This document shows positions 17,751 through 61,440 of a stretch of 64,000 nucleotides of DNA, piece by piece. Under the pieces are notes generated by a model. That model did no database searches. It was given only the letters and a program-made list of their open reading frames with translations, and had not been told where the DNA came from. Position 1 is the stretch's first letter. Every line of letters begins with the position of its first letter. Position numbers and translations under genes: made by a program. Source of the DNA: Tissierellia bacterium (GTDB lineage Bacteria; Bacillota; Clostridia; Tissierellales; Peptoniphilaceae); NCBI GenBank assembly GCA_012728335.1, contig JAAYFG010000055.1, positions 967 to 64,966 on the forward strand. Direction: 5' to 3'.

Positions 17751-18836
17751 ATGTTTAAGGATGTCCTTGTAAAAACACTTTTGGGTAATGATTTTAAAGA
17801 AAAGATACACTTTAACGCCCAAAAGTGTTTGAGAAATAACAATTTCAAAGACAAATGCACTAAATGCAAAGACATTTGCCCTGAAAAGGCAATTGAAAAT
17901 TTAAATAGTTCAGTTAAAATTGATGAGATTTTATGTACAGGTTGTGGTTACTGTGTAACTGAGTGTTATAGTAGAAGCCTGTCTATGAAATCTAATTTTT
18001 ATGCTAAGGCATATTTAGGTATTTTCAATTCTGTGGAAAGTACTTATAGCTGTTTAAAGAAACCAGGTGATTATGGAATAAATGGTTGTTTTAGACTGAT
18101 GGATTACAAATTTTTAAGTGCTTACAAGGCGACTGGCGTTGATCATAATTTGATATTAGACTTATCGGAATGTGATGATTGTATGTATAAGAATTTGAAT
18201 GAAGATTTTGAAAAGGATATAGAGAAGATTTTCTTAAACTCTGAAAATGGACCACGTGTTACTTTGGTTAATGAAATTAAAGTGGAAGACACAACTGATT
18301 CTCCAGTTAGTCGACGTGAGTTCTTGGAAGTTTTTAAGAACAAGGGAACTGTGGTTAAAGACAATTTTCTTAATGATTTCGTTGAACAGTTTGAGTTCCT
18401 TAATGAAGGGGAGACATATAGAGATGATTTAAATCGTGTAGTATATGCTCTACTCAAATCTAGAGATGATATTGAAAAATATATTGATTCAAATGAATAC
18501 ATTTTTACTCCATCTATTAACCAGAATTGCACAATGTGTAGAATGTGTATTAATCTTTGCCCAAATGGAGCATTGAAAATAGAAACTGTAAATGGTGAAA
18601 GTTCTATTTTACTAGACAGTTCAAAATGTAGTTTTTGTGGACTCTGCATTGAAAAATGTGGTGACAATGCAATAACTAAAGGAGTATTTAAAGGCTTTGA
18701 TGTATTTACAATACATACAAAAGGTGTACAAAAGTGTAAACTATGTAGGTCAAAAGTCACTAAACTAAATGCGAATGGTTTATGTGATACATGCTTTATA
18801 CGAGAGAGAAACAGAAAAACAAAAATAAATTTGTAG
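17751..18836 (+). CDS. Cytoplasmic multi-cluster 4Fe-4S ferredoxin-domain protein (361 aa); first gene of the molybdoenzyme operon
   Basis: Motifs C-x9-CTKCKDICP, CTGCGYCVTEC, CTMCRMCINLCP and CSFCGLCIEKC, plus C-terminal CKLC-x13-CDTC. No signal peptide or TM segment. GAGGTG SD. Confidence 0.7.
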   Translation: MFKDVLVKTLLGNDFKEKIHFNAQKCLRNNNFKDKCTKCKDICPEKAIENLNSSVKIDEILCTGCGYCVTECYSRSLSMKSNFYAKAYLGIFNSVESTYSCLKKPGDYGINGCFRLMDYKFLSAYKATGVDHNLILDLSECDDCMYKNLNEDFEKDIEKIFLNSENGPRVTLVNEIKVEDTTDSPVSRREFLEVFKNKGTVVKDNFLNDFVEQFEFLNEGETYRDDLNRVVYALLKSRDDIEKYIDSNEYIFTPSINQNCTMCRMCINLCPNGALKIETVNGESSILLDSSKCSFCGLCIEKCGDNAITKGVFKGFDVFTIHTKGVQKCKLCRSKVTKLNANGLCDTCFIRERNRKTKINL

Positions 18837-18846
18837 GAGGTATATT

Positions 18847-19401
18847 TTGGCTAAATATGCAATGGTTTTTGATAAGAGAAGATGCGTAGGTTGTAACGCA
18901 TGTGTTGTTGCTTGCCAACAAAATTATTCTATGCCACCAGAGAATAAATTAAACTGGGTGACAGTAGAAGAAGAGGGAGAATTTCCAAATATTAAAATGG
19001 ATTTCGTTCCACAATTATGTGGACATTGTGAAAACACTCCATGTGTTGAAATCTGTCCAGTAGAAGGCGCTACATATAAAACTAAAGAAGGATATGTTCT
19101 TGTAAATGAAGATCTATGTATTGGTTGTGGAGCTTGTTTAAAAGGATGTCCTTATGGTGCAAGAAGTATAAACGCAGAATCTAATAAAGCTGTAAAATGT
19201 ACTTTTTGTGCAGACATTGTTGAAAATGGTGGCAATCCAGTATGTGTAAACACTTGTCCTACAAGTGCACGTATTTTTGGTGATTTAGAAGACCCTGAAT
19301 CAGAGGTTTCTAAATTATTAGCTAGTGGTGATTTAGAAAGATACGATGTATATATTGGCAATGAATCAGAGGGTATAAACCCTAATGTTTATTATAAATA
19401 G
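18847..19401 (+). CDS. Molybdopterin oxidoreductase 4Fe-4S electron-transfer subunit (DmsB/PsrB/NrfC-like)
   Basis: Four Cys groups: CVGCNACVVAC, CGHCENTPCVEICP, CIGCGACLKGCP and CTFC...CVNTCP. TTG start 6 nt after GGAGGT. Confidence 0.8.
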   Translation: MAKYAMVFDKRRCVGCNACVVACQQNYSMPPENKLNWVTVEEEGEFPNIKMDFVPQLCGHCENTPCVEICPVEGATYKTKEGYVLVNEDLCIGCGACLKGCPYGARSINAESNKAVKCTFCADIVENGGNPVCVNTCPTSARIFGDLEDPESEVSKLLASGDLERYDVYIGNESEGINPNVYYK

Positions 19402-19410
19402 GAGGTCGCC

Positions 19411-21144
19411 ATGCTAAAGGAAATGTGGAAAAAAGAGATATCTAGAAGAAAGTTTTTACAGGCATCAGGATTGGCGGCTACTTCATTAGTACTTCTAAAA
19501 GGCTATGAAAAGCTAACAGAAGACGAAGTAAGAGTTGTTAATAGTCCAGATGCACAAACTTATATTCCAGAAGATGTAGATAAACTTTATACATCATGTT
19601 ATATGTGTGCTATAAACTGTGGTGCTGTTGGTGTTGTAAATAAAGATGGAACAGTTAAGAGAATTGAACCTAATAAAAATGACCCAGTAAGCGGTGGAGC
19701 ACTATGTGCAAAGGGTAATGCTGGTATTGATCAGTTATATGATGAAGACCGTTTAAAAACACCTATGAGAAAAATTGGTGAACATGAATGGGAACAAATT
19801 TCTTGGGATGAAGCATTCGATACCATGTACGATCAATTTACTAGAATCGCATCTGAACACGGACCTGAAACAGTAGTTGGATTAAACCGTAGAGGTTACT
19901 ATACAAGCTACTTAAAAGGCTGGTTACGTACTTATGGTTCGCCAAATGGACCATTGGGACAAGCTAGTATCTGTGATGGTGGAAAGAGAATTGCTCAACA
20001 AATAGCAGTAGGAGCTTCTGGTTTATACTGTGACTTCAAGAATTCAAAATACATTATGTTACTTGGAGCTAACCAATTCGAAGCACCAAGATACAGACTT
20101 GGAATGATAGACGATATACTTACTGCTCAAGAAAATGGAGCTAAATTAATCGTAATCGATCCTAGATTTAACTATACAGCATCAAAAGCTGATGAATTTC
20201 ATCCAATTACGCCAGGGACTGACGGATTATTCCTTCTTTCAATGTGCCATGTAATTGCAAAAAATGGAATGGAAGATTCAGACTTCATTGCGAATCATTC
20301 AGCTGGTTATGAAGAATTTAAAAATGAAATACTACAAGATAAATATGCACCTAGAAATGTAGAAGCTGAAGTAGGAATTAGTGCTGATGACATTGAGAGA
20401 ATGGCGATTGAATTTGCTAGTGCAGAAGGCGCAATTGCTGATACTTCTAGTGGTTTAATCATGTATCAAAGTGGAACGGTATCTGACTGGGCGCTATTAA
20501 ATCTAGTTGCTATGACAGGTAATATGTTAAACAAAGGTGGAATTGTTAAAAAGGCAGGAGCTAAAACTAGCGGACCTAAGTTTGAAGTAGACAATTCTAA
20601 AGATAAAGAAGCATTTGCTAAGTATTTAGGATATGTTTCTTATGAAGGTGGAACTGAAAATGGTAATAGAAATATTATTGCCGACTGTATATTAAATCCA
20701 GAAGCAGTGCCGACTGGACCTAGAGTTGCTGAAGATACCCTTAGCCTTTATGGTGGAAAAGGTATTAAGTCAATAATAGTATATAACACAGAACCAATAG
20801 GAGCACAATCAGACTCTACAAGACTAAAAGAAGCTTTTAATGCTTTAGAATTTGGAGTAGTTGTAGATATATATCTTTCTCAAACTGCAGAAGCAATGCC
20901 AGTGGGAAGTTTAGCATTGCCTGAGTGTACTTATTTAGAAAGATACTCTGTAAGAAGTGCAAATGCATATACTCCAGTTCTAAATATTAACCAACCATTA
21001 ACTGAGCCTATGTGGGAATCTAAAACAGGTTATTGGATATTCTCTAAATTAGGACAAAGATTTGGTTATGAAGAATTTGCAGATTTTGATCCAGAGGATG
21101 ATTTGGGACAAGCAATTGCATCTGTTGAAAATGCAGATCAATGA
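19411..21144 (+). CDS. Tat-signal molybdopterin (bis-MGD) oxidoreductase catalytic subunit, N-terminal 577 codons ending at an in-frame TGA
   Basis: Twin-arginine signal ISRRKFLQASGLAATSLVLL. FS0 cluster motif C63-x2-C66-x3-C70...C99. Candidate Mo-ligand Cys188 (SICDGG). Same reading frame as 21145..21771. Confidence 0.8.
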   Translation: MLKEMWKKEISRRKFLQASGLAATSLVLLKGYEKLTEDEVRVVNSPDAQTYIPEDVDKLYTSCYMCAINCGAVGVVNKDGTVKRIEPNKNDPVSGGALCAKGNAGIDQLYDEDRLKTPMRKIGEHEWEQISWDEAFDTMYDQFTRIASEHGPETVVGLNRRGYYTSYLKGWLRTYGSPNGPLGQASICDGGKRIAQQIAVGASGLYCDFKNSKYIMLLGANQFEAPRYRLGMIDDILTAQENGAKLIVIDPRFNYTASKADEFHPITPGTDGLFLLSMCHVIAKNGMEDSDFIANHSAGYEEFKNEILQDKYAPRNVEAEVGISADDIERMAIEFASAEGAIADTSSGLIMYQSGTVSDWALLNLVAMTGNMLNKGGIVKKAGAKTSGPKFEVDNSKDKEAFAKYLGYVSYEGGTENGNRNIIADCILNPEAVPTGPRVAEDTLSLYGGKGIKSIIVYNTEPIGAQSDSTRLKEAFNALEFGVVVDIYLSQTAEAMPVGSLALPECTYLERYSVRSANAYTPVLNINQPLTEPMWESKTGYWIFSKLGQRFGYEEFADFDPEDDLGQAIASVENADQ

Positions 21145-21771
21145 GATGGTCTTAAAGTTGCTTGGGACGAATTGCTTGAAAATGGAACATGGTTTAAGAA
21201 AGATGCTGAAGCTAGAGATTACGAAAACTATACAAAAGTATTCCCTAACGAAAAGTATCGTTTTGCATTTGTTGGTGATGATATTAATGATGACCATAAA
21301 ATGTTCTTAAGTGTGGGTGGAGAAGCATTTCCAACTTACTTAAAGCCATTAGAACTTACAGATGAGTTCCCATTGAGATTTATGGCTGGTGGTAAAGTTA
21401 TGTGGCACACACAAACTTCTACTAGAAATAATAAATACTTAATGCAAACTTTCGACTCTAATGTAATAGTTAAAGATACTAACTATATAGTTATGAGTGT
21501 TGCAGATGCAGCGGAAAGAGGACTTGAGTCTGGAGATATAGCTACAATAACTTCTCCAATAAATTCATTGGAAACAGAAGTATTAGTTACAGAAAGAATG
21601 CCGAAAGGTTATGTTCATATGACTCACGGATTCGGCCATGATGCTCCATCTCAAAAACTTGCAAATGGTGTAGGGGCTAACTGTTCACAATTGACTGATA
21701 CTCATAGAATAGACCTTTATTCAAATTGCTTTACAGCAAAAGAGGAAATATGTAATGTTGCAAGAGCTTAA
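21145..21771 (+). CDS. C-terminal molybdopterin-dinucleotide-binding domain portion of the same oxidoreductase, in frame after TGA 21142-21144
   Basis: Frame continues DGLKVAWDELLENGTWF... with no stop. First possible restart is TTG 21172, which has no SD. Domain-IV-like content (PLRFMAGGKVMWHTQTS..., MPKGYVHMTHGFGH). Confidence 0.7.
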   Translation, partial: DGLKVAWDELLENGTWFKKDAEARDYENYTKVFPNEKYRFAFVGDDINDDHKMFLSVGGEAFPTYLKPLELTDEFPLRFMAGGKVMWHTQTSTRNNKYLMQTFDSNVIVKDTNYIVMSVADAAERGLESGDIATITSPINSLETEVLVTERMPKGYVHMTHGFGHDAPSQKLANGVGANCSQLTDTHRIDLYSNCFTAKEEICNVARA

Positions 21772-22366
21772 TATTGAAAAGAAAATAGAGAGACTAGAGA
21801 TATTAAACGTACTACTTTCAAAACCTGATGATTTTATTAAGTCAAATATTAGCGATGATAAATTAGTTGAGGTATTAAACGAAGTGTTCCCAGAAAAAAA
21901 CTGGGAATGCTTCAATGAAAGTGAGTTAAAAGACAATATTATTGACAATATATCTAGAGACTATCTTTATCTGTTTGTTGGTGTTTCAAAACCATTGGCA
22001 TCACCTTATATGTCTTCGTACTATAGAGCAAACTCCAGATTAATGGATACTCCAGCAAGGGAAATGCTCGCTTTAATGAAGAAGTGGGGAATAGAAAAAG
22101 ATAGCGAATACAAAGATTTACCAGATCATTTCTTGACGATAATTAATTTAATGTCTGTATTATTGAGTAGTTCTTTAGAATTAGAAGAAGAGCTCTTAAT
22201 CGATGATATAAATAATGATATTAGAGAATTAGCTGGAAAGACCTATGATTACTTGCCGAAAGTAATAGAGAAAGTTGTAGAAAATGAAAAGGCAAAATAT
22301 TATTCAATATTTCTTCAATTACTTATGGATGAAATGGAGATTTTAAAGGAACATGAAATTAGATAG
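21755..22366 (+). CDS. TorD/DmsD-family redox enzyme maturation chaperone
   Basis: 203 aa. YLYLFVG....PLASPYMSSYY pattern typical of the TorD family. Overlaps the end of the catalytic subunit gene. Confidence 0.65.
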   Translation: MLQELNIEKKIERLEILNVLLSKPDDFIKSNISDDKLVEVLNEVFPEKNWECFNESELKDNIIDNISRDYLYLFVGVSKPLASPYMSSYYRANSRLMDTPAREMLALMKKWGIEKDSEYKDLPDHFLTIINLMSVLLSSSLELEEELLIDDINNDIRELAGKTYDYLPKVIEKVVENEKAKYYSIFLQLLMDEMEILKEHEIR

Positions 22367-22937
22367 TGCAATCATATTAGCTGGTGGTAAAAGTAGTAGG
22401 ATGGGATTTGATAAACAGTTAATTGAAATTGACGATATGCTCATTGGAGAATATATAGCTAGAGAACTAAGTATGTGTTTTTCTGAGATAATCATTGTCA
22501 CAAATCGCCCAGAACTATATACTGGTAGTAATTATAAAGTGATAGGAGACATATATCCTGGACATGGTCCTATATCGGGAATCCATGCGGGTTTAGTTGA
22601 ATCCAATTCACAATATAGCTATATTACAGCATGTGATATGCCAATAATTTCTAAGAAGTACATTGAAACCATAATTGAGATTGCAGATGATAATTTTGAA
22701 TTCAAGGGGCTAGTAGTAGGTAAAGGCAAAGAAACAGAGCCTATGAATGGTGTTTATTCAAAATCTCTAATAAGTGATTTAGAAAACAGAATAGTAAGTG
22801 GTAATTATAGAATTAGAAGTATAATTGAGGACAATGAATTCATACATATTGATAAATCAATTTTGAAAGAAGTTGAAGGTGATATTTTTATGAATTTAAA
22901 TATGCCTGAAGATCTGAATAGTATTCAGAATAAATAA
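22353..22937 (+). CDS. mobA: Molybdenum cofactor guanylyltransferase
   Basis: N-terminal AIILAGGKSSRMGFDKQLI motif, 194 aa. Confidence 0.85.
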   Translation: MKLDSAIILAGGKSSRMGFDKQLIEIDDMLIGEYIARELSMCFSEIIIVTNRPELYTGSNYKVIGDIYPGHGPISGIHAGLVESNSQYSYITACDMPIISKKYIETIIEIADDNFEFKGLVVGKGKETEPMNGVYSKSLISDLENRIVSGNYRIRSIIEDNEFIHIDKSILKEVEGDIFMNLNMPEDLNSIQNK

Positions 22938-23007
22938 GTTATAATGTAGCTTTTAACATTAATATAAGCTATATTATATATATACAAAACTAAATATAGA
23001 CAAAATT

Positions 23008-23146
23008 GTATCCGAGCTGTATTTCCTAAAGGGAAACCCATGGAAACCAGCCTGAACTTTTAGTTCACAGGGTTATTTGAGAAATTGAATGGCCTTCCGA
23101 TTTGAAAAGGACACAAAGTAGTCATTATCCGTCATAGAGCCGGAGT
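23008..23146 (+). promoter_or_regulatory. Molybdenum cofactor (Moco RNA motif) riboswitch aptamer
   Basis: P1 halves UCCGAGCU (23011-) and AGAGCCGGA (-23144). Conserved GGCCUUCCGAUUUGAAAAGGAC core closely resembles the Moco motif core as I recall it from E. coli moaA. Located upstream of modA. Confidence 0.7.
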
Positions 23147-23151
23147 TTTAT

Positions 23152-23187
23152 AATGCTATTTTGGTCCTGCCAAATAGCATTTTTTTA
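23152..23187 (+). terminator. Riboswitch expression-platform terminator
   Basis: AATGCTATTT...AAATAGCATT stem plus a T7 run, immediately 3' of the aptamer and 20 nt before modA. Confidence 0.8.
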
Positions 23188-23207
23188 TTATGAAAGGGGA
23201 AAAAAGC

Positions 23208-24020
23208 ATGAAAAGGATAATGACAGTATTACTAGTAGGAATGATGATTTTAACAGGTTGTGGTAAAAATGAAGAAAAGCCAGCAGATGTTAAAGTCGAA
23301 GATAAAAAGGAGATTGTAGTTTTTGCAGCAGCGTCTATGACAGAGTCGCTAGAGGAAATTAAGGGAAAGTACGAAAGTGAAAATCCAGCAATTGAGATAA
23401 TATATACTTTCGATTCTTCAGGAACTCTTAAAACTCAAATTGAAGAGGGTGCTGATGTCGATATATTCATATCTGCAGCTCAAAAACAGATGAATGCGTT
23501 GGATATTGAGTCAGACAAAAACGAAGATCAACTAGATTTTATTTATTCAGAATCAAGAATTGACTTACTAAAAAATAAAGTAGTATTGGCAGTAATAGAG
23601 GGAAATGAAAAAGGGCTTTCAAGTTTTGACGATTTGAATACAGATTTAGTAGAACACATTGCATTGGGAAATGCTGATGTTCCAGTTGGACAATACTCAG
23701 AAGAAATTCTTGGGAATATGGGTATATGGGATGCCATACAACCAAAAGTTACATATGGTTCAAATGTAAAAGAGGTAACTACTTGGGTAAGTGAAAAAAG
23801 CGTTGACTGTGGAATTGTATATGCAACAGATGCGTATTCTGCAGGATTAGAAGCAGTAGCTGAAGCTCCAGAAGGAACTTTAAAAACTGAAGTAGTATAT
23901 CCAGCTGCAATTCTTAAAAACTCAGAAAATCCTGATGAAGCAAAAGCGTTTTTAGATTATTTACAAGGTGAAGATAGTAAAGGCATATTTGAATCAGTTG
24001 GATTCACAATGGCGAAATAG
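23208..24020 (+). CDS. modA: Molybdate ABC transporter substrate-binding lipoprotein
   Basis: Lipobox MILTGCG. ModA-like sequence (VFAAASMTESL, FISAAQKQM). Start at 23208 preferred over 23190 (SD GGGGA). Confidence 0.85.
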   Translation: MKRIMTVLLVGMMILTGCGKNEEKPADVKVEDKKEIVVFAAASMTESLEEIKGKYESENPAIEIIYTFDSSGTLKTQIEEGADVDIFISAAQKQMNALDIESDKNEDQLDFIYSESRIDLLKNKVVLAVIEGNEKGLSSFDDLNTDLVEHIALGNADVPVGQYSEEILGNMGIWDAIQPKVTYGSNVKEVTTWVSEKSVDCGIVYATDAYSAGLEAVAEAPEGTLKTEVVYPAAILKNSENPDEAKAFLDYLQGEDSKGIFESVGFTMAK

Positions 24021-24035
24021 AAAGAGGAGAATAAA

Positions 24036-24710
24036 ATGGATTGGTTTCCACTATTGAATTCCATAAGGATTGCAACAATTTCAACGTTTATTACTTTTTT
24101 CTTAGGTATATTTTTTGCATATTATGTAGCAAAATTACCTAAGGCAATAAAAGGAGTATTAGATGTTATATTAACCCTTCCATTAGTATTACCTCCTACA
24201 GTAATAGGATTTTTCTTACTTAGAATAATGGGGAATAATAGTACTTTTGGTATATTTCTCCAAGAGCAATTCGGTATAAAATTGATTATGACTTGGCATG
24301 CTGCAATCTTTGCAACAATAGTGGTAACTTTTCCACTAATGTATAGAACTGCAAGGGGAGCTTTTGAAGCGTTTGATATGAATTTGAAGTATGCTGCTCA
24401 AACTTTAGGTAAGAAAAACACTTGGATTTTTTGGAGAATTCTGATACCAAACTGTAAGACCGGAATAATTGCAGGAACTGTATTGAGTTTTGCAAGAGCA
24501 CTGGGAGAATACGGTGCAACCAGTATGGTATCAGGATATACTCCTGGTAAGACTGCCACTGTCTCAACTACTGTCTATCAACTTTGGAGGACGGGAAATG
24601 AAATGTTGGCATATAAATGGGTTATGATTAATGTAGCGATTTCATTTGGAATATTGATTATTATGAATATGATGGAGCAAAATGCAAAATCAAGTGTAAA
24701 GGTAAATTAA
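24036..24710 (+). CDS. modB: Molybdate ABC transporter permease
   Basis: 224-aa permease with EAA-like loop (ARALGEYGAT). Lies between modA and modC. Confidence 0.85.
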   Translation: MDWFPLLNSIRIATISTFITFFLGIFFAYYVAKLPKAIKGVLDVILTLPLVLPPTVIGFFLLRIMGNNSTFGIFLQEQFGIKLIMTWHAAIFATIVVTFPLMYRTARGAFEAFDMNLKYAAQTLGKKNTWIFWRILIPNCKTGIIAGTVLSFARALGEYGATSMVSGYTPGKTATVSTTVYQLWRTGNEMLAYKWVMINVAISFGILIIMNMMEQNAKSSVKVN

Positions 24711-24711
24711 T

Positions 24712-25770
24712 ATGTTAATAGTAGATATAAAGAAGAAATTAGATAAATTTGAATTAGACGTGAATTTTGAAACAGAAAATGAAGTCATTGGATTACTTGG
24801 AATGTCTGGAAGCGGCAAAAGTATGACATTAAAATGTATTGCAGGTATTGAAAGACCGGATAGTGGAAGAATAGTATTAAATGACAAAGTGCTTTATGAC
24901 TCTTCCAAGAGAATAAATCTGCCTCCCCAAGAGCGAGGTATTGGTTATTTATTTCAAGACTATGCTCTATTTCCCAATATGACAGTTTATCAAAACATTG
25001 CAGTTGGAATTCATAAGAGTGTCAATAAATCAGAGGTTATAGAAAATATACTTCTCGAAATGGGAATACTTGATAAAGTAAACCACTATCCACATCAAAT
25101 TTCAGGTGGTGAAAAGCAAAGGGTTGCATTGGCAAGAATAGTCGTAAATGAACCTGAAATTCTTCTTTTAGATGAACCCTTTTCAGCACTAGATGAATTT
25201 CTTAGTTGGAAGATTGAAATGGATATGATGGAAACTATAGAAAAACATATAAAAAATGCAATACTTGTTTCACACGATAAAGAAGAAGTGTATAGAATGA
25301 CCGATACAGTATGTGTATTGGATAATGGAAAGTCGCAAAGTAAAAGAGATACTAAAGAATTGTTTTCCAATCCTAATACTTATGCATCGGCAATTTTGTC
25401 TGGGTTGAAGAATTTTTCTGAATATAGAAAAGTTTCGGATGATACGATTTTTCTAGAAGATTTTGGAATAAGTATTGATTTACCAAGAGATGTATTTATA
25501 AATGAAATTGGTACAGTGGGCATAAAACATGATAATATTAGAATCAGCGATGAGGACTTAGGGTCGATGAATGTATATAAAGGTTCGATAAAGAGAGTCG
25601 CCGAAGGAATTGAAAACTCAATCTATATTATTGACATAATAGGGACCGAGAGTAAGAAAAGCTTTGTGATTGATTCTAAAGAAAACTTAGATATGGAATT
25701 TAACATTGGAGATATGGTATATTTAGAGATACCTAAATCAAACATTATTATTATAGAAAGTGACGAATAG
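24712..25770 (+). CDS. modC: Molybdate ABC transporter ATP-binding protein with C-terminal TOBE-like domain
   Basis: Walker A GMSGSGKS, signature ISGGEKQRV, Walker B LLLDEP, about 130-aa C-terminal extension. Confidence 0.85.
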   Translation: MLIVDIKKKLDKFELDVNFETENEVIGLLGMSGSGKSMTLKCIAGIERPDSGRIVLNDKVLYDSSKRINLPPQERGIGYLFQDYALFPNMTVYQNIAVGIHKSVNKSEVIENILLEMGILDKVNHYPHQISGGEKQRVALARIVVNEPEILLLDEPFSALDEFLSWKIEMDMMETIEKHIKNAILVSHDKEEVYRMTDTVCVLDNGKSQSKRDTKELFSNPNTYASAILSGLKNFSEYRKVSDDTIFLEDFGISIDLPRDVFINEIGTVGIKHDNIRISDEDLGSMNVYKGSIKRVAEGIENSIYIIDIIGTESKKSFVIDSKENLDMEFNIGDMVYLEIPKSNIIIIESDE

Positions 25771-27028
25771 AACTATGAATTCTGAAATATTAGTACAAAT
25801 ACATCCAGACGAAGCAATTGAGCTGTTGCTAGCACAAGACATAGATTATGAAATGGAAACTATTTCTCTGGATGATGCTCTAGGAAGAGTTGCAGCAGAA
25901 AATATTTACTCCAAAGTGAATGTACCCCCTTTTGATAGAAGTCCTTATGATGGATATGCATTTAGAGGTGAAGACACAATAGGAGCTAGCAAAGACAAAT
26001 GGGTTGAACTTGAAGTGATAGAAGAGATTCCAGCAGGCACTTGGCCAAAGTATGAGATAAGTTCTGGAACTGCAGCTAAAATTTTAACAGGAGGGCCTGT
26101 TCCTGAAGGGGCAAATGTATGTATAAAATACGAAGAAACGGAATTAATAGATAATAGAATAAAGATTTTTAGAGAAATACAACCTAATACAGATATTGTA
26201 TATATGGGAGAAGACAGAAAAAAAGATGAAGTAATCATTGAAAAGGGCGATGTTTTAAATACTGGAGAGATTGGTGAATTGGCAAGCCAAGGAATATCAA
26301 AGGTAGTGGTTTACAGAAAACCTGTAGTCGGTATATTCAATATGGGAAGTGAATTAACACCACCTGAAGAAAGACTTAAAAAAGGTAAGATTTATAATAG
26401 CAATTATAATGCTTTACGAGCTTTTTTGGAGAATATAGGTATGGAAGTAATTGACTTTGGAATCATTAAGGATGATGAAGAACTTGTAGAACAAAAAACT
26501 ATTGAATCATTAAGCTTAGTAGATATTCTCATAACTACAGGTGGCGCATCAGTTGGAGATTATGAATATGCACTATCGAGTATTAAGAATATTGGTGCAA
26601 AAGTTCTTTTTTGGAAGACTGCAATGAAACCGGGAGGCTCAATAGTAGTATCGAATATAGAAGATAAAATCGTCTTTGGACTATCTGGAAACCCTGCAGC
26701 AGCACTTTTGAGCTTATATAGAGTTGGACTACCATTTTTATATAAAGCTTGTGGTAGGAGAGAACTGAAGCCTGAAACAGTAAATGTATTTCTGAAGGAA
26801 GATTTAGATAAAAATAGTCCGGCAGTTAGATTACTTCGTGGCAAATTAGAGATTGACAATGGAAAAGTTTATTTTGCAGAGAATAAAGAACAAGGTAACG
26901 GCGTAGTGTCATCTTTTGTAAAGTGCGATGCATTTGCTGAAATTCCCATGGGAAGTAAAGCTGTTTCTGCTGGAACATTGGTCAAAGCCTATAGGGTAGG
27001 GAGTTTATTTGGAAGTGTTGGTGAATAG
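25760..27028 (+). CDS. moeA: Molybdopterin molybdenumtransferase (start GTG 25760 or ATG 25775)
   Basis: MoeA-like PPFDRSPYDGYA, ILTGGPVPEGA and ITTGGASVGDYE motifs. Confidence 0.85.
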   Translation: MTNRTMNSEILVQIHPDEAIELLLAQDIDYEMETISLDDALGRVAAENIYSKVNVPPFDRSPYDGYAFRGEDTIGASKDKWVELEVIEEIPAGTWPKYEISSGTAAKILTGGPVPEGANVCIKYEETELIDNRIKIFREIQPNTDIVYMGEDRKKDEVIIEKGDVLNTGEIGELASQGISKVVVYRKPVVGIFNMGSELTPPEERLKKGKIYNSNYNALRAFLENIGMEVIDFGIIKDDEELVEQKTIESLSLVDILITTGGASVGDYEYALSSIKNIGAKVLFWKTAMKPGGSIVVSNIEDKIVFGLSGNPAAALLSLYRVGLPFLYKACGRRELKPETVNVFLKEDLDKNSPAVRLLRGKLEIDNGKVYFAENKEQGNGVVSSFVKCDAFAEIPMGSKAVSAGTLVKAYRVGSLFGSVGE

Positions 27029-27970
27029 ATGAAAGATAGATTTAATAGGGATATTAATTATATGCGTATTTCTGTAACGGATTTGTGCAATTACAGATGC
27101 CAATACTGTATGCCAGAAGACGGCGTCGATAAAAAATGTCATAGTGAAATATTAAGCTATGAAAAAATAGAAGAGATAGTAAAAGTTGCATCTGAATTCG
27201 GAATAAACAAAATCAGACTAACAGGTGGAGAACCACTTATTAGAAAAGGCATAGTTGGACTATGTCAAAAATTGAGTGAAATAGAAAAAATTGACGAAAT
27301 ATGCATCACCACTAATGGAACTCTTCTTAAATCCATGGCTAAAGATTTAAAAGAAGCTGGCGTAGACAGATTAAATATAAGTATTGATACACTGAACTCT
27401 GAAAAATATAGAGAAATGACCAGAAATGGAAAATTAGAAGATGTAATTGAAGGTATAGAACTTGCACTTGAGTTGGGGTTTAAAATCAAATTGAATATTG
27501 TGTTAATTGGTGGATTCAATGATATGGAAATCCCTGAACTTGTGAAATTGACAAGAGATAATGACGTTCAAGTCAGATTTATAGAACTTATGCAAATAGG
27601 GGAAACAGCTAATTGGAGCAAAGATAAATTCATTCCAAATGACTTTGTTTTGGAGGCTGTTACCGAATTAAAACCTATAAATATTGAAGGGGTAGCTAAA
27701 GTATACAAAGTAGACGATTGGAAAGGAACAGTCGGTTTAATTAGTCCTATAAGTAGTTGTTTTTGTGATGATTGTAATAGAATTAGATTAACATCAGATG
27801 GCAAATTAAAACCATGTCTTCATTCCAGCGAGGAAGTAGACTTAAGCAATATGACAGAAGATGAGCTTAGAGAAACGCTTAGAACTTCCATATTTAACAA
27901 GCCGGAGAAACATCATTTAGACGAAGATATAAGCGAAAGTATTCGAAATATGAATCGTATTGGAGGGTAA
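27029..27970 (+). CDS. moaA: GTP 3',8-cyclase (radical SAM)
   Basis: CNYRCQYCMPE radical-SAM motif. C-terminal CxxCxRxRLTSDGKLKPCL motif. Confidence 0.92.
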   Translation: MKDRFNRDINYMRISVTDLCNYRCQYCMPEDGVDKKCHSEILSYEKIEEIVKVASEFGINKIRLTGGEPLIRKGIVGLCQKLSEIEKIDEICITTNGTLLKSMAKDLKEAGVDRLNISIDTLNSEKYREMTRNGKLEDVIEGIELALELGFKIKLNIVLIGGFNDMEIPELVKLTRDNDVQVRFIELMQIGETANWSKDKFIPNDFVLEAVTELKPINIEGVAKVYKVDDWKGTVGLISPISSCFCDDCNRIRLTSDGKLKPCLHSSEEVDLSNMTEDELRETLRTSIFNKPEKHHLDEDISESIRNMNRIGG

Positions 27971-27972
27971 TT

Positions 27973-28464
27973 GTGGACGGAAAAAAGGAATTCACTCACT
28001 TTAATAGTGAAGGAAGAGCAAAGATGGTCGATGTAAGTGAGAAAGACCAAACTTTTAGACAAGCAACTGCTTGCGGAAAAGTCTATTTAAACAGGGAAAC
28101 ATATGAACTAGTAGTTTCTAAAGGCATGAAAAAAGGCGATGTACTTCAAGTTGCTCAAGTTGCTGGAATAATGGGTGCTAAAAAAACGTCGGAAATAATC
28201 CCAATGTGCCATCCTATCATGCTTATGGGAGTAGATATAGAGTTTCAACTAAATGACGAAGAAAACTCAATAAAAATATTGGGGACTACAAAGTGTAAAG
28301 GTGAAACGGGAGTGGAAATGGAAGCTCTTACAGCTGTTAGTGTGGCTGCTCTTACAATATATGATATGTGTAAAGCGATTCAAAAGGATATAGTGATAGA
28401 TGAAATATATTTATTAGAAAAAATTGGTGGCAAAAGTGGACATTATCACAAGGGGGAAATATGA
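27973..28464 (+). CDS. moaC: Cyclic pyranopterin monophosphate synthase
   Basis: MVDVSEK, IIPMCHP and TGVEMEALTA motifs. GTG start 5 nt after GGAGGG. Confidence 0.92.
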   Translation: MDGKKEFTHFNSEGRAKMVDVSEKDQTFRQATACGKVYLNRETYELVVSKGMKKGDVLQVAQVAGIMGAKKTSEIIPMCHPIMLMGVDIEFQLNDEENSIKILGTTKCKGETGVEMEALTAVSVAALTIYDMCKAIQKDIVIDEIYLLEKIGGKSGHYHKGEI

Positions 28465-28904
28465 AAGTAGTAGCGGTCTGTATAAGTGAAAAAAAAGGAA
28501 CGAGAAAACATACAGTTGATAGTATTGAACTGAAAATTGACCATGGAATAGTTGGAGATGCTCATGCTGGGAACTGGCATAGACAAGTTAGTTTTCTTGA
28601 TCAAAGTAGCTTTGATAAAATGAAAATAGCATATCCAGAATTGCATCCTGGTGATTTTGCAGAAAATATATTAACTGAAGGAATTGAACTTTTTACACTT
28701 CCAATAGGAACTAGATTAAGAGTTGGAGAAACTGAGTTAGAAGTTACTCAAATTGGAAAAGAGTGCCATAAGGGATGTGAAATAAGAAATATAGTTGGTG
28801 ATTGTGTTATGCCAAGAGAAGGAATCTTTGGGATAGTTACAAAGGAAGGAACTATTTACCCAGATGATGAAATAGAGATTCTGAAGGATGAGGCAAATGA
28901 TTAG
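28461..28904 (+). CDS. MOSC domain-containing protein
   Basis: 147 aa. GDAHAG..HRQVS and GDFAENIL patterns typical of small MOSC proteins in clostridial moa operons. Confidence 0.7.
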   Translation: MKVVAVCISEKKGTRKHTVDSIELKIDHGIVGDAHAGNWHRQVSFLDQSSFDKMKIAYPELHPGDFAENILTEGIELFTLPIGTRLRVGETELEVTQIGKECHKGCEIRNIVGDCVMPREGIFGIVTKEGTIYPDDEIEILKDEAND

Positions 28905-29919
28905 AAAAGTTAAAACTGAGGATGCAGTAGGACTTCCACTATTGCATGATATCACAGGAATATTAGAAGGTGGATTTAAAGGAGTTGTCTTTAGAAGAAA
29001 CCATATAATACAATCTGAAGATATAAGCACATTGAAAAATATTGGTAAAGACCATGTGTACGTTGGTGAACTTGAAGCCAATGAAGTCCATGAAGAAGAT
29101 GCTGCAAAGTTACTAGCTCCCCATGTCGTTGGAGAAAATGTATCTTTTAATGAGCCGACGGAAGGCAAAATTAGTTTAAGTAGTGAAGTTGATGGATTAT
29201 TATCTATCAATTTAGACGGACTAAACAAGATTAATTCAGTAGGAGACTATACTATAGCATCACTTCCAAATTATATGGAAGTTAAAAAGAATCAAAAATT
29301 AGCTGGTTTGAGAATTGTTCCTTTATGGACTGAAAATGAAACCGTTGATACTGCAATAGAAATTGCAAAGTTGAATACTCCAATTTTTTCAGTTAAAGAG
29401 TACCGTAAGTTGAAAGTTGGAATCATCATTACTGGTAGTGAAGTGTATTATGGAAGAATTAAAGACTTGTTTGAGCCAGTACTTAGAAAAAAATTGTCCA
29501 AGTATGATGCAGAAATCTTAGATGTTAAAAAATGTCCTGATGATTTAGATTTCATAAAATCTAGTGCACAGAATTTCTTAGATATGGGGGCAGATTTAAT
29601 TATATTCACAGGCGGAATGTCAGTAGATCCAGACGATTTGACACCTACTGTAATAAAATCTTTGTCTGATGAGATGATTACTCAAGGTGTTCCTATGCAA
29701 CCAGGTAATATGCTTACTATTGGTAAGGTAGGGAAAGCAATACTCATAGGAGTTCCAGGAGCTTCAATTCATGCTCCAACAACGAGTTTTGAAATAACCT
29801 TACCTAAAATATTTGCAGGTGTAGAGATTACTAAAGAAGATATAAATGCGATGGGTGCAGGTGGACTTTGTTTAAATTGTGAAGTATGCCATTATCCAAT
29901 TTGCTTTTTTGGGAGATAG
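28888..29919 (+). CDS. Molybdopterin-binding (MoeA-domain-III/MoCF_biosynth-like) protein with C-terminal Cys cluster
   Basis: GIIITGSEV... and IFTGGMSVDPDD motifs of the MoCF-binding fold. C-terminal CLNCEVCHYPIC. Confidence 0.6.
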   Translation: MRQMIRKVKTEDAVGLPLLHDITGILEGGFKGVVFRRNHIIQSEDISTLKNIGKDHVYVGELEANEVHEEDAAKLLAPHVVGENVSFNEPTEGKISLSSEVDGLLSINLDGLNKINSVGDYTIASLPNYMEVKKNQKLAGLRIVPLWTENETVDTAIEIAKLNTPIFSVKEYRKLKVGIIITGSEVYYGRIKDLFEPVLRKKLSKYDAEILDVKKCPDDLDFIKSSAQNFLDMGADLIIFTGGMSVDPDDLTPTVIKSLSDEMITQGVPMQPGNMLTIGKVGKAILIGVPGASIHAPTTSFEITLPKIFAGVEITKEDINAMGAGGLCLNCEVCHYPICFFGR

Positions 29920-29921
29920 AT

Positions 29922-30422
29922 ATGGGAAATAAATACAATGTTGGAATCATAACTATTAGTGATAGATCTTCAAGTGGAGAACGAGAAGACTTAGCTGGTC
30001 CATTACTTAGGGATTTAGTTGAAGAAGATGGATACAAAGTAGTGAATGAATCCATAGTACCTGATGAAAAAGATTTAATCATGGAAAAGCTTATAGAATT
30101 AAGCAATGATGATAGTATTGCTTTAATATTAACCACTGGTGGAACTGGCTTTTCACCACGAGACATAACTCCTGAGGCGACGATAGAAGTTTGTGAGAGA
30201 CTTACACCAGGAATACCTGAAGTTATGAGAGCTCATAGTAGTAAATACACTAATAGAGCATATTTATCTAGATCTCAAGCTGGAATTAGAAAAAGGAGTT
30301 TGATTATTAATTTACCAGGAAGTCCTAAAGCGCTAAAGGAAAACTTAGAGGTATTACTACCTTTTCTAGATCATGGACTTCAAATGCTAAGAGGAAAATC
30401 AGCAGACTGTGCTAATGAATGA
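29922..30422 (+). CDS. mog: Molybdopterin adenylyltransferase MogA/MoaB family
   Basis: VGIITISDRSS and LILTTGGTGFSPRDITPEA motifs. ATG 29922 follows GGGAGA and the stop of the previous gene. The longer ORF start at 29886 was rejected. Confidence 0.85.
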   Translation: MGNKYNVGIITISDRSSSGEREDLAGPLLRDLVEEDGYKVVNESIVPDEKDLIMEKLIELSNDDSIALILTTGGTGFSPRDITPEATIEVCERLTPGIPEVMRAHSSKYTNRAYLSRSQAGIRKRSLIINLPGSPKALKENLEVLLPFLDHGLQMLRGKSADCANE

Positions 30423-30450
30423 TTCATTGGCACTTTTTTATTTGATATAT

Positions 30451-30468
30451 TGTAAACGATAGTTTACA
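30451..30468. promoter_or_regulatory. Perfect 7-4-7 inverted repeat TGTAAAC-gata-GTTTACA in the mog/tatA intergenic region
   Basis: Arms are exact reverse complements. No T-run, so it is a candidate protein-binding site rather than a terminator. Confidence 0.25.
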
Positions 30469-30693
30469 TTTAGAGAAAAGGACTGTGATATCCTAGTAAA
30501 CATCAGACTTAATAAAAAACATTAGATTTAGATAGTTAAAGTTTTGTTGTATAAGTCAAATTATAATGATATAATAAAGGGCAGAATTTGTGGTTTTATT
30601 TAGTGTTCATACTAATATTTCCACAACAGATAGCATCAAAAAGAGTTGTTTTGATCTATTTGATAAAAATATTAAATTAGTTAGGAGAAAAGT

Positions 30694-30933
30694 ATGTTTG
30701 GGAAATTAGGATTAGGCGAATTATTATTGCTTTTCGGTGTTGTACTATTGCTATTTGGACCAAAAAAATTACCAGAGCTTGCTAGATCTATGGGTCAAGC
30801 TGTAAAGGAATTTAAAAAAGGCCAAGAAGAAATAGAAGAAACACTAAATGCTGATGTTACAGTTACAGAAACTAAGACAACAGAAGAAGTAAAAGAAGTT
30901 AAAGAAGACAAAGAAACTGAAAATAAACAATAG
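30694..30933 (+). CDS. tatA: Twin-arginine translocase subunit TatA/E
   Basis: MFGKLGLGELLLLFGVVLLLFGPKKLPELARSMGQAVKEFKK is a canonical TatA N-terminus. 79 aa. Confidence 0.92.
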   Translation: MFGKLGLGELLLLFGVVLLLFGPKKLPELARSMGQAVKEFKKGQEEIEETLNADVTVTETKTTEEVKEVKEDKETENKQ

Positions 30934-30949
30934 TCGATGAGGGATAATA

Positions 30950-31681
30950 TTGAATTCAAATAGTGAAATGCCATTTTTGGATCATCTTGATGAATTGAGA
31001 AGTAGACTTACAAAAGTTGCATTGCTACACATAATTGTAATGGTTATAGTCTTCACTAAATCTGGTGATATATTGAGACTTTTGTTGAAATTAAACCCTG
31101 AAATGCAATTGGTATTTATTGAACCATCTGAGATAATGGTGGTATATATGCAAATTGCGATGGTTGGTGCAGCCACTATATGTTCGCCTTTTACCATTCA
31201 TCAGATTTGGGCATTTGTTTCTAAAGGGCTATATGATAGAGAAAGACATTTTGTGATTATTGCAATAGCTATGGGGGCAGCATTTTTCGTCATAGGAGTA
31301 GTATTTGGATACATGATAGTAGTTCCTTTCTCTCTGCAGTTTTTCACAAGAATTTCTATTGAAGAAGTTCCGTCCATGGTCTCAGTCAAGTCTTATATCA
31401 GTTTTATATTGACTTTATTGTTGTCTTTAGGAGTAGTGTTTAATATGCCTTCACTAGTCTATGTAGCGACAAAGGTAGGAATATTGAAACCGAGTATGCT
31501 TAAAGAATACAGTAAGATAATAATAGTTATAATTTTTGCTGTTGCAGCAATAGTTACACCACCAGATGTGGTTTCTCAACTAATGATTGCAATTCCGATG
31601 GTTGCACTATTACAAATAAGTATAATGCTTTCGACAAATGTATATAATCGAAAGATGAGAAAGGAAAATAGACAATCATGA
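30950..31681 (+). CDS. tatC: Twin-arginine translocase subunit TatC
   Basis: PFLDHLDELRSRL N-terminal motif, six TM segments, 243 aa. TTG start after GAGGGA. Confidence 0.9.
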   Translation: MNSNSEMPFLDHLDELRSRLTKVALLHIIVMVIVFTKSGDILRLLLKLNPEMQLVFIEPSEIMVVYMQIAMVGAATICSPFTIHQIWAFVSKGLYDRERHFVIIAIAMGAAFFVIGVVFGYMIVVPFSLQFFTRISIEEVPSMVSVKSYISFILTLLLSLGVVFNMPSLVYVATKVGILKPSMLKEYSKIIIVIIFAVAAIVTPPDVVSQLMIAIPMVALLQISIMLSTNVYNRKMRKENRQS

Positions 31682-32337
31682 AAGTATTTGGAGTATCTGG
31701 CACGAGTAATTCAGGTAAGACTACAATAGTAGAAGAAATCATAATTGAACTTGGCAACAGGGGATATTCTGTTGGTTCAGTTAAATCGATAGGTTGCGGT
31801 AAAGATGATGATTATCATGATTCAACCGATAGTTTTTCAATTGACAGGTTTGGGACTGATTCATATATACACAAAGAGGCAGGATCCAAATTAGTGACCA
31901 CATGGGCAGAGAACGAGACTGCATTAATATATCCAAGAAGACTTGAGATTGAAGATATTATTTTGAACTATAATCATGACTTTTTGATTATTGAAGGTTT
32001 CAAAAAATCGGGATTACCGAAAGTCATAACCGGACAATCTAGAGAAGACGTTAATCTTTTAATGTCAGATTCAGTTTTCGCTATATCAGGGAAAATTTCT
32101 GATGAAGAGTCTGAGATAAATGGTATTAAAGTATATAAAACTTTTGAAGAAGTGAATGAATTAGTTGACTTAATAGTTGAGAATGTTCCAGAGTATAAGT
32201 ATTTAGATACAAATATAAATCTAAAGGTTTTCAATAAAGAAGTTGATACTGAGAGTGTAGAAAGAGAATTATATGGACTACTTAAAAAATTAGGAATCCA
32301 TAATCAAGATGTAAAAATTAGTATAAGTGAGAAATAA
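31678..32337 (+). CDS. mobB: Molybdopterin-guanine dinucleotide biosynthesis adapter MobB-like protein with C-terminal extension
   Basis: P-loop VFGVSGTSNSGKTT at the N-terminus, as in MobB. ATGA overlap with tatC. Confidence 0.7.
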   Translation: MKVFGVSGTSNSGKTTIVEEIIIELGNRGYSVGSVKSIGCGKDDDYHDSTDSFSIDRFGTDSYIHKEAGSKLVTTWAENETALIYPRRLEIEDIILNYNHDFLIIEGFKKSGLPKVITGQSREDVNLLMSDSVFAISGKISDEESEINGIKVYKTFEEVNELVDLIVENVPEYKYLDTNINLKVFNKEVDTESVERELYGLLKKLGIHNQDVKISISEK

Positions 32338-33481: not shown

Positions 33482-33576
33482 GAAAAGTCTGAAAGAAAGT
33501 TTTTCTTTGAAAATTGGAGAATTTTGTGTTTCTAAGTTCTCAAATTTTATTTAAAAATGAGTATATTTATAGTTTC

Positions 33577-33679
33577 TTGAAGGAGAGTGAAGGGAGTTGC
33601 GGTTCTCTCTCATACCCTCCTTCAAACATCCTCAATTAAATACATCAATGATTATCTATCCAAGAAAACTAATAGATAG
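33577..33679 (+). repeat. Structured repeat unit A: purine/pyrimidine-armed hairpin (33577-33625) plus AT hairpin (33653-33679)
   Basis: Outer stem TTGAAGGAG / CTCCTTCAA (9 bp, perfect). Downstream TATCTAT...ATAGATA hairpin. The flank ATCAAtGATTATCTATCCAAG is shared with unit C. Confidence 0.7.
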
Positions 33680-33748
33680 CAGATTAAAAACTACCATATA
33701 TAATCAAAATAATACTATTCCAAAATGTATGAAATTCATATGGTTTAA

Positions 33749-33829
33749 ATGTTTTAGCGTGGAAGGGTTGAAGAGAGAGTTTGAGAGAGAAAAAAGGGAA
33801 CCTACGCAAGTTCCCTTATCTCTCTCAAA
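33749..33829 (+). repeat. Structured repeat unit B (A/T-variant hairpin 33780-33829)
   Basis: TTTGAGAGAGA-aaaaa-GGGAAC-CTACGCAA-GTTCCC-tta-TCTCTCTCAAA. 5' flank GTTTTAGCGTG is shared with units C-E. Confidence 0.75.
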
Positions 33830-34036
33830 TAAGATATATGAGAAGTAGAGCTTTAACTTGTATATCGTGCATTAACACAGTTTAGTATGTAAAATATAAC
33901 ACAGTTTAGTATATAAAATATAATGCATTCAGTATTTTAATGGTTTTAAAGATTTTAGCGTGTGAGGGTGCTATAGGGGGAGTTTGAGGGGGAGAGGGGG
34001 ACCCTACGCAAGGTCCCTGCTTCCCCCTTAAGTAAA
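33800..34036 (+). repeat. Long direct repeat, copy 1 (contains an extra internal 24-nt tandem duplication)
   Basis: Near-identical to 34235-34445 except for the insertion GTAAAATATAACACAGTTTAGTAT and a few substitutions. Confidence 0.8.
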
Positions 34037-34086
34037 TATATCAAAGATTATCTATCCAAGGAAACCAATAGATTTCAAATATTTTT
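33931..34086 (+). ncRNA. Candidate small RNA (paralog 1) containing repeat unit C
   Basis: Promoter-like ATAACA (33896-33901) - 17 nt - TATAAT (33919-33924). Two hairpins followed by a U-rich stretch around 34081-34086. Purely predictive. Confidence 0.2.
33953..34075 (+). repeat. Structured repeat unit C (G/C-variant hairpin 33986-34029 plus AT hairpin 34050-34073)
   Basis: GAGGGGGAG-agg-GGGACC-CTACGCAA-GGTCCC-tg-CTTCCCCCT. Same loop as unit B, with both stems changed in a compensatory way. Confidence 0.75.
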
Positions 34087-34185
34087 ACTTCTACTCTCTA
34101 AGGACTTAAAATCAAAGTGAAAACTATAAAACCTTTGACTCTTGAAAAACACTATGCAAATAAAGGTTTTAGTGTTTTAAAGATT

Positions 34186-34262
34186 TTAGCATGTGAGGGT
34201 GCTATAGGGGGAGTTTGAGGGGGAGAGAGGGACCCTACGCAAGTTCCCTTATCTCTCTCAAA
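34186..34262 (+). repeat. Structured repeat unit D (chimeric: C-type 5' arm with B-type 3' arm)
   Basis: GAGGGGGAGAGAGGGACC-CTACGCAA-GTTCCCTTATCTCTCTC. Arms can still pair on the plus-strand RNA mainly through G-U wobbles. Confidence 0.7.
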
Positions 34263-34445
34263 TAAGATATCTGAGAAGTAGAGCTTTAACTTGTATATCG
34301 TGCATTAACACAGTTTAGTATATAAAATATAATGCATTCAGTATTTTAATGGTTTTAAGGTTTTAGCGTGTGAGGGTGCTATAGGGGGAGTTTGAGGGGG
34401 AGAGAGGGACCCTACGCAAGGTCCCTGCTTCCCCCTTAAGTAAAT
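34235..34445 (+). repeat. Long direct repeat, copy 2
   Basis: Aligns by eye with 33800-34036 from CTACGCAAGTTCCCTTATCTCTCTC through CTTCCCCCTTAAGTAAAT. Confidence 0.8.
34364..34440 (+). repeat. Structured repeat unit E (G/C-variant, near-identical to unit C)
   Basis: TTTTAGCGTGTGAGGGTGCTATAGGGGGAGTTTGAGGGGGAGAGAGGGACCCTACGCAAGGTCCCTGCTTCCCCCTTAAG. Confidence 0.75.
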
Positions 34446-34476
34446 TCATCATAAAATAACAACATACCAACAAAAC

Positions 34477-34514
34477 AAAAAGTGGACTACCAAAAGGCAA
34501 TCCACTTTTTATTT
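34477..34514. terminator. Bidirectional Rho-independent terminator
   Basis: AAAAAGTGGA - 14-nt loop - TCCACTTTTT, with A-run and T-run on either side. Abuts the stop of the minus-strand ABC gene. Confidence 0.8.
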
Positions 34515-43624: not shown

Positions 43625-43712
43625 CATTTTACTTTGAAATTTGTGGAGAAAAGTATATAATAAAGGGTATATATTTTATAGCAGTACATTTGAGCTATGA
43701 TAGGGTGTGGTT

Positions 43713-44057
43713 ATGAAGATAAAACGAGGAGATTTATACTATGCCGATCTCAGCCCAGTTATAGGTTCTGAACAAGGCGGAGTAAGACCAGTCGTCATAG
43801 TTCAGAATGATATAGGGAATAAATATAGTCCCACTACGATAGTAGCAGCAATAACGTCTCAATTAAATAAACCTAAACTACCTACTCATGTTCCAATTTC
43901 AGCTCAAAAATATGGACTGCCTAAAAATTCAGTAGTACTCACTGAACAACTGAGAACTGTTGATAAAAAAAGACTAAGAGAAAAACTAGGTAGCGCAGAT
44001 GAAGAATTTATGAAGAGAATTGATGATGCTATAAAGACTAGTGTGGGATTGAAGTAA
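43713..44057 (+). CDS. mazF: MazF/EndoA (PemK family) endoribonuclease toxin
   Basis: [47 protein letters not shown] is close to the EndoA/MazF consensus. 114-116 aa. Confidence 0.88.
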
Positions 44058-61280: not shown

Positions 61281-61308
61281 ATAAAAAACTTCATAATATT
61301 TATGAAGT
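61281..61308 (-). terminator. TPP riboswitch expression-platform terminator
   Basis: Minus-strand RNA ACUUCAUAA-aua-UUAUGAAGU followed by UUUUUAUUU. Confidence 0.8.
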
Positions 61309-61320
61309 ATGTTTGATAAA

Positions 61321-61400
61321 CATCCCTACGTCAGCATTATCTGTATCAGGTTCAAAGGGTACTGGACTTATCCATCTCAGCCATAATAGGCGCCCCTGTA
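61321..61400 (-). promoter_or_regulatory. TPP (THI-box) riboswitch
   Basis: Minus-strand sequence CAGGGGCGCC...GCUGAGAUGG...ACCCUUUGAACCUGAUACAGAUAAUGCUGACGUAGGGA carries the conserved CUGAGA and ACCUGAU...GCGUAGGGA elements. Confidence 0.9.
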
Positions 61401-61440
61401 TGTATTTAATTGTCAGCAATAGATTAATATTACTTTAACT

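Follow-up and report, generated by a model that had tools for sequence, protein, structure and literature searches.

An in-frame TGA in a molybdopterin oxidoreductase gene of a Tissierellia bacterium is a one-base change in a conserved glycine codon and not a recoding signal

Organization of the interrupted gene

The DNA analysed here, which will be referred to as the window, is a stretch of 64,000 nucleotides (nt) of contig JAAYFG010000055.1 from a metagenome-assembled genome (MAG) of a Tissierellia bacterium; it is AT-rich with a GC content of ~32%. The gene under study spans positions 19411-21771 on the forward strand and encodes the catalytic subunit of a molybdopterin oxidoreductase carrying a signal for twin-arginine translocation (Tat), but is split in-frame by a TGA at 21142-21144. 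An initial annotation of the sequence had drawn attention to this codon and to a hairpin directly behind it, and had listed selenocysteine (Sec) insertion or other read-through, a recent nonsense mutation, a naturally split enzyme and a sequencing error as possible explanations. The features at the site are the following:

19411..21141, forward strand: upstream piece, 577 aa, a predicted PsrA/PhsA-like oxidoreductase binding the bis-molybdopterin guanine dinucleotide (bis-MGD) cofactor (Pfam, NCBIfam, structure 2VPW and motifs; NLY20459.1)
21142..21144, forward strand: premature TGA, codon 578, derived by replacement of G with T at 21142 in a glycine codon that was ancestrally GGA
21145..21771, forward strand: downstream piece, 208 codons, domain IV (Pfam PF01568), free of further stops and frameshifts
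21149..21168, forward strand: incidental 7-bp hairpin within the codons for G-L-K-V-A-W-D (RNAfold)
21172..21174, forward strand: TTG, a poor candidate for an independent start (duplex with the anti-Shine-Dalgarno sequence)

The interruption and its coordinates were confirmed in all parts. The TGA ends an open reading frame (ORF) of 577 aa (19411..21144), the same frame stays open for 208 codons past it up to the TAA at 21769-21771, the nine codons directly 3′ of it read DGLKVAWDE, and the first in-frame start after it is the TTG at 21172. In the NCBI annotation of the Tissierellia bacterium MAG, whose contig measures 65,821 nt, the gene consequently appears as two entries (region of locus tag GXZ08_04190), as the 577-aa product is identical to NLY20459.1 and the TTG-started ORF of 199 aa (21172..21771) is listed as hypothetical protein NLY20460.1.

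Domain analyses showed the domains of one enzyme spread over the two pieces. The upstream piece carries a twin-arginine motif (SRRKFL, residues 11-16) at its N-terminus, followed by the Pfam domains Molybdop_Fe4S4 (PF04879) and Molybdopterin (PF00384), while Molydop_binding (PF01568, domain IV) was found in the downstream piece, in agreement with its earlier assignment as the C-terminal molybdopterin-dinucleotide-binding domain. The cysteine of the SICDGG motif, previously proposed as the molybdenum ligand, is indeed residue 188 of the upstream piece and aligns with the SLC motif of PsrA from Thermus thermophilus (2VPW, E = 4e-66), the nearest solved structure. The aligned cysteine of PsrA is the molybdenum ligand, and Cys188 is the putative ligand here. 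The best NCBIfam match was PhsA with 286.9 bits, far under the cutoff of 694 bits for this thiosulfate reductase equivalog. The three domains found across the two pieces and the cysteine at the ligand position argue for a PsrA/PhsA-like bis-MGD oxidoreductase, to be classified as a member of the dimethyl sulfoxide reductase superfamily only.

The likeness to the T. thermophilus PsrABC system (PDB 2VPW-2VPZ) comprises the four-domain bis-MGD architecture, the Tat signal, the N-terminal Fe4S4 domain, the cysteine at the ligand position and an adjoining PsrB-like subunit with four clusters. However, identity to PsrA/PhsA is only ~30%, the operon in the window has no NrfD/PsrC membrane subunit and instead carries a soluble polyferredoxin of 361 aa before the Fe-S subunit, and the gene of the window MAG is cut off before domain IV.

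The TGA replaces a conserved glycine codon

A protein search among 5.8 billion proteins retrieved 21 full-length orthologs with 40-82% identity. All of them are single polypeptides, with lengths of 772-803 aa (784-803 aa in close and 772-797 aa in distant relatives). Opposite the TGA, 17 of the 21 carry glycine and the remainder serine, proline or alanine, whereas neither cysteine nor a TGA was present at the aligned position in any of the 21. The alignment of orthologs recommended in the initial annotation thus yielded glycine for the large majority, never cysteine, and no gene boundary. The description of the site as a variable inter-domain linker applies to the wider family, as the alignment of this region with PsrA (2VPW) is poor, but not to the orthologous group itself, in which the site lies inside a conserved ADQ-G-DG motif.

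At the nucleotide level, a scan of genome contigs provided relatives from Peptoniphilaceae MAGs and Neofamilia massiliensis. The orthologous genes in the twelve loci L001-L007, L086, L087 and L090-L092 are intact single ORFs, and all carry a glycine codon (GGA, GGC or GGT) at the site. Closer relatives, designated L081, L082 and L083, were found via 90%-identity clusters of neighbouring proteins. L082 is related but ends before the TGA site. L081 (ENA contig ERZ4248467), with 89.7% nt identity and a coverage of 2.4x, has GGC at the site. L083, a contig of 1,570 nt from another sample (Logan assembly of SRR19859949), gave a gapless match of 99.17% to window positions 20968-22537 and, given this identity, represents the same species as the window. 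The GGA allele of this species is contained in SRR19859949 and SRR19859948.

Comparison of the window with L083 revealed 13 differences: ten synonymous changes, two missense changes and position 21142, which is T in the window and G in L083, where the codon is GGA and encodes glycine. Over the 30 nt following codon 578, including every base of the hairpin, the two sequences are identical. Since position 21142 is also G in the outgroups L081 (89.7% nt identity) and L001 (76% nt identity), parsimony argues that the T is derived in the lineage of the window. The TGA was thus seen in a single assembly. Two exact-pattern scans across the codon in JGI metagenome contigs yielded no match in the first case and four matches in the second, all of them unrelated chance matches.

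Two further observations were made in this comparison. L081 contains a lone in-frame TAA earlier in the same gene (L081:293-295, corresponding to window 20551-20553), where the window has AAG for lysine; this is either an error due to the low coverage or a second, independent knockout of the reductase. Downstream of the stop, codon 640 of the window (21329) shows a derived exchange of tyrosine for phenylalanine (TAT to TTT), while L083 and both outgroups keep tyrosine. A single conservative change of this kind does not suffice as evidence of relaxed selection.

The part of the gene behind the stop has not decayed. No further stops or frameshifts are present in 21145..21771, and the ratio of nonsynonymous to synonymous substitution rates (dN/dS) is similar on both sides of the TGA, with 0.086 downstream and 0.067 upstream in comparison to L001, and 0.042 and 0.033, respectively, in comparison to L081. 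The downstream piece therefore retains the appearance of a sequence subject to purifying selection. Because its dN/dS matches that of the upstream piece and no other lesions have accumulated, the stop must be very recent, if it is present in the organism, and an old pseudogene was ruled out on the same grounds.

Hairpin and selenocysteine

In-frame UGA codons followed by a hairpin are a known signature of bacterial selenoprotein genes, and the combination found here would at first sight allow the insertion of Sec at UGA 21142, with the hairpin acting as a bacterial selenocysteine insertion sequence (SECIS). RNAfold predicted the structure given in the initial annotation: positions 21149-21155 pair with 21162-21168 (GUCUUAA/UUGGGAC) to form 7 bp with the loop AGUUGC and a free energy of -5.9 kcal/mol. 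The stem begins within 4 nt of the UGA, and the 6-nt loop contains both G and U. In addition, Sec is used in many related anaerobes of the Clostridia type, and the superfamily includes the Sec enzyme FdhF (FDH-H), whose structure (1AA6) was among the structure matches obtained with our protein.

The stability of the hairpin exceeds chance only mildly. Among the spans following each codon of the gene, it belongs to the top 3.5% when 28 nt are considered, but only in the top 27% and 41% for spans of 41 and 57 nt, respectively. Against dinucleotide shuffles in contexts of 44 and 60 nt the z-score was -0.76, and 40-42 out of 200 shuffled sequences folded equally well, so that over SECIS-sized spans the hairpin is no better than shuffled sequence. 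The SECIS search suggested earlier was carried out with Rfam and gave no match for the hairpin region at E ≤ 10. More decisively, the identical hairpin stands next to GGA in L083. The hairpin therefore predates the UGA and was not selected together with it. It is incidental, arising from the codons of conserved residues (G-L-K ... W-D), and very probably no SECIS.

The site itself points in the same direction. Criteria applied in selenoprotein mining are a Sec/Cys pair in homologs, a TGA shared by two or more different sequences, and a stem-loop of the SECIS type whose apical loop contains G, and in-frame TGAs found in a single sequence are regarded as possible sequencing errors (PMC1088965). 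Neither of the two sequence criteria applies here, as the homologs carry glycine, or in the minority serine, proline or alanine, instead of cysteine, and the TGA occurs in the window MAG alone. A catalytic role had already been judged improbable in the initial annotation, a view that the alignment with a conserved glycine and the position of Cys188 clearly support. Furthermore, neither a tRNA gene nor selA, selB or selD was found among the ~60 annotated ORFs of the 64-kb window. The comparison with E. coli FdhF illustrates the difference: although both are molybdopterin oxidoreductase genes with an in-frame UGA and, close behind it, a small hairpin with a loop G, Sec is the molybdenum ligand in FdhF, whereas in the window Cys188 occupies that position and the UGA replaces a glycine ~390 residues later. 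Unlike in FdhF and other bacterial selenoprotein genes, the UGA is kept in no relative, and the hairpin is present unchanged beside a GGA codon. Selenocysteine or any other programmed recoding was ruled out by the glycine alignment, the restriction to one assembly, the unremarkable hairpin and the lack of an Rfam match, and we attach next to no probability to it.

A reassigned genetic code, in which TGA stands for glycine (code 25) or tryptophan (code 4) throughout the genome, was considered as well, since the TGA is located exactly where relatives have glycine, as a TGA read as glycine would superficially predict, and the genome is AT-rich. Nevertheless, at least four ordinary genes of the window end in TGA (at 28464, 30422, 31681 and 55012). 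In two cases the TGA is part of an ATGA stop/start overlap (28461-28464 and 31678-31681), and the in-frame extensions past TGA stops are short. The TGA at 21142-21144 is the sole one in-frame within a conserved gene among the ~60 genes of the window, and the conspecific strain uses GGA. As TGA serves other genes of the window as a regular stop, the code is not reassigned; codes 4 and 25 were ruled out and have a negligible probability.

Translation past the stop codon

If the TGA is a real stop in the cell, it might still be leaky or bypassed, either by near-cognate read-through of UGA, yielding some full-length enzyme, or by re-initiation at TTG 21172, which would produce a working split enzyme of a 577-aa piece and a 199-aa domain-IV piece resembling FwdB/FwdD. 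Such an effect would be incidental and not programmed. Several features are compatible with it. The frame past the TGA is open and conserved, the TTG follows the stop at a distance of only 27 nt, preceded by a weak GGGA match resembling a Shine-Dalgarno (SD) sequence, and the NCBI annotation lists two coding sequences. Low-level read-through of UGA is known in Bacillus subtilis, and formylmethanofuran dehydrogenase has a separate domain-IV subunit (FwdB and FwdD).

The translation signals, however, are poor. For TTG 21172, the free energy of the upstream anti-SD duplex is -3.9 kcal/mol compared to a median of -7.2 kcal/mol for 62 gene starts of the window; in strength, this value belongs to the bottom quarter of real starts, and 20% of random positions equal it. 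The initial annotation, which had stated that the TTG has no SD sequence, was therefore essentially right. For the next in-frame ATG (21301) the anti-SD score was +0.6. Thus, at neither TTG 21172 nor ATG 21301 was a start with its own ribosome-binding site found that would define a second gene. A restart at 21172 would also lose nine residues, some of which are conserved.

The ortholog data do not favour a split enzyme either, as not one ortholog is split. With FwdB/FwdD the window shares the position of the break, which separates domain IV from the Molybdopterin domain, and a faint NCBIfam match to FwdB was obtained, but the split is conserved in no ortholog, the second piece lacks a proper ribosome-binding site, and in the 99.2%-identical strain a sense codon joins both pieces. 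Since the arrangement is absent from that strain, it is not an evolved, selected design, and the naturally split enzyme offered as one option in the initial annotation was ruled out by the complete lack of split orthologs and the weak SD match at TTG 21172. Incidental leakage or bypass of a real stop is unlikely, and less likely still is that the stop is tolerated with the enzyme working by appreciable UGA read-through or as two re-initiated pieces. If this were true, a molybdoenzyme would have been caught at the moment of becoming a split enzyme of the FwdB/FwdD type.

Nonsense mutation or consensus error

The evidence points to the two remaining options listed in the initial annotation, a recent nonsense mutation and a sequencing error, and in both cases the TGA is an ordinary lesion or artefact that belongs to no recoding system. 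It shares with ordinary nonsense alleles, young pseudogenes and MAG consensus errors the one-base change in a conserved sense codon in one assembly only, the undecayed downstream piece and the intact neighbours, and nothing sets the TGA of the window apart from such cases.

We favour, with moderate confidence, a recent, strain-specific nonsense mutation of GGA to TGA in glycine codon 578, which would make the gene a young pseudogene or a segregating null allele. In this case, one very recent G to T change at 21142 would have occurred in the lineage or population behind the MAG, after its split from the strain represented by L083, which differs by 0.8%. Translation would end after 577 residues, giving a product with Tat signal, Fe4S4 domain and the cysteine ligand of molybdenum but without Molydop_binding (domain IV). 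In solved structures of the family it is this domain that closes over bis-MGD, and because of its loss the truncated enzyme would most likely be inactive. The genes for cofactor synthesis, chaperone and Tat export would have had too little time to decay.

Some findings weigh against a real mutation. The assembled sequence fits a consensus error equally well, and G to T changes are a typical artefact of oxidative damage during library preparation. Moreover, the full support system of the enzyme (the TorD-like chaperone, MobA, the molybdenum cofactor (Moco) riboswitch, modABC, the moa/moe genes, tatAC and mobB) is intact, as would be expected for a working enzyme, although a stop that arose only days to centuries ago would fit this as well.

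The alternative is a sequencing or assembly error in the consensus of the MAG, meaning that GGA is present in the organism, that its gene is unbroken and that there is no biology at the site. A substitution of one base would be sufficient, and the TGA is unique to the assembly of the window, with GGA in the 99.2%-identical L083. The undecayed downstream piece and the support genes, all of them intact, are in line with an error, as is the lone in-frame stop in the same gene of the low-coverage L081 (2.4x; TAA, window 20551), and TGAs confined to one sequence are treated as possible errors in selenoprotein mining (PMC1088965). On the other hand, none of the ~60 other annotated genes of the 64-kb window is interrupted, so that the stretch as a whole is not riddled with errors. 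Substitution errors are rare in short-read consensus assemblies, and real nonsense alleles, which would look identical, are common in natural populations. For these three reasons we give a real mutation somewhat more weight than a consensus error, which nevertheless is a serious possibility, and we infer that cells of the organism carry the change and that it is not confined to the assembly.

In either case, the site represents a clean negative, in which a signature resembling that of a selenoprotein, a TGA with a hairpin, turned out to be a one-base accident in a glycine codon, recognized because of one conspecific contig and an alignment of orthologs. NLY20459.1 (577 aa) and NLY20460.1 (199 aa) should be read as the halves of one disrupted gene, and in metabolic reconstructions of the MAG the enzyme should not be counted as present unless the sequencing reads have been checked. 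If the mutation is real, it would be a minor example of a strain that has lost an anaerobic respiratory reductase but still has an intact island supporting cofactor synthesis and export.

Genetic environment of the interrupted gene

The genes and elements surrounding the catalytic gene that relate to the enzyme are as follows:

17751..18836, forward strand: soluble polyferredoxin, 361 aa, intact (Pfam, NCBIfam)
18847..19401, forward strand: PsrB/NrfC/TtrB-like Fe-S subunit with four clusters, 184 aa, intact (Pfam, NCBIfam)
21755..22366, forward strand: Tat-proofreading chaperone of the TorD/NarJ family, intact (Pfam PF02613, NCBIfam)
22353..22937, forward strand: MobA, intact (Pfam PF12804, NCBIfam)
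22998-23128, forward strand: Moco riboswitch (Rfam RF01055, 87.2 bits)
22998..32337, forward strand: support island, intact, with modABC, moeA, moaA, moaC, a MOSC protein, two MoCF_biosynth proteins, tatC and mobB (Pfam)
30694-30933, forward strand: tatA (TatA ORF)

The order of polyferredoxin, Fe-S subunit and catalytic gene is the same in L001 and L086-L092. The polyferredoxin of 361 aa heads the operon, a position conserved in the relatives L086-L092. No hydrophobic segment was found in this cysteine-rich protein, and no integral membrane subunit of the PsrC/NrfD type, which oxidises quinol, adjoins the gene cluster. For this enzyme with its Tat signal, the electron path suggested by these findings is a soluble or differently wired one. 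Just 3′ of the molybdoenzyme operon, the Moco riboswitch immediately precedes modA and thus the modABC-moeA-moaA-moaC cluster.

Further features of the window were noted outside this region. Between a gene for a phosphotransferase system EIIC-like protein and a convergent ATP-binding cassette (ABC) transporter gene, ~1 kb (33482-34513) contains no ORF of at least 100 aa, and Rfam at a permissive threshold gave only sub-threshold noise for this segment. A thiamine pyrophosphate (TPP) riboswitch on the minus strand (61305-61407, 69.8 bits) is located upstream of a cluster encoding an NMT1/THI5-like protein and a transporter of the energy-coupling factor (ECF)/ABC type (60602-57571, minus strand). 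Finally, a gene for a toxin of the PemK/MazF family with 116 aa is present at 43707-44057 on the forward strand.

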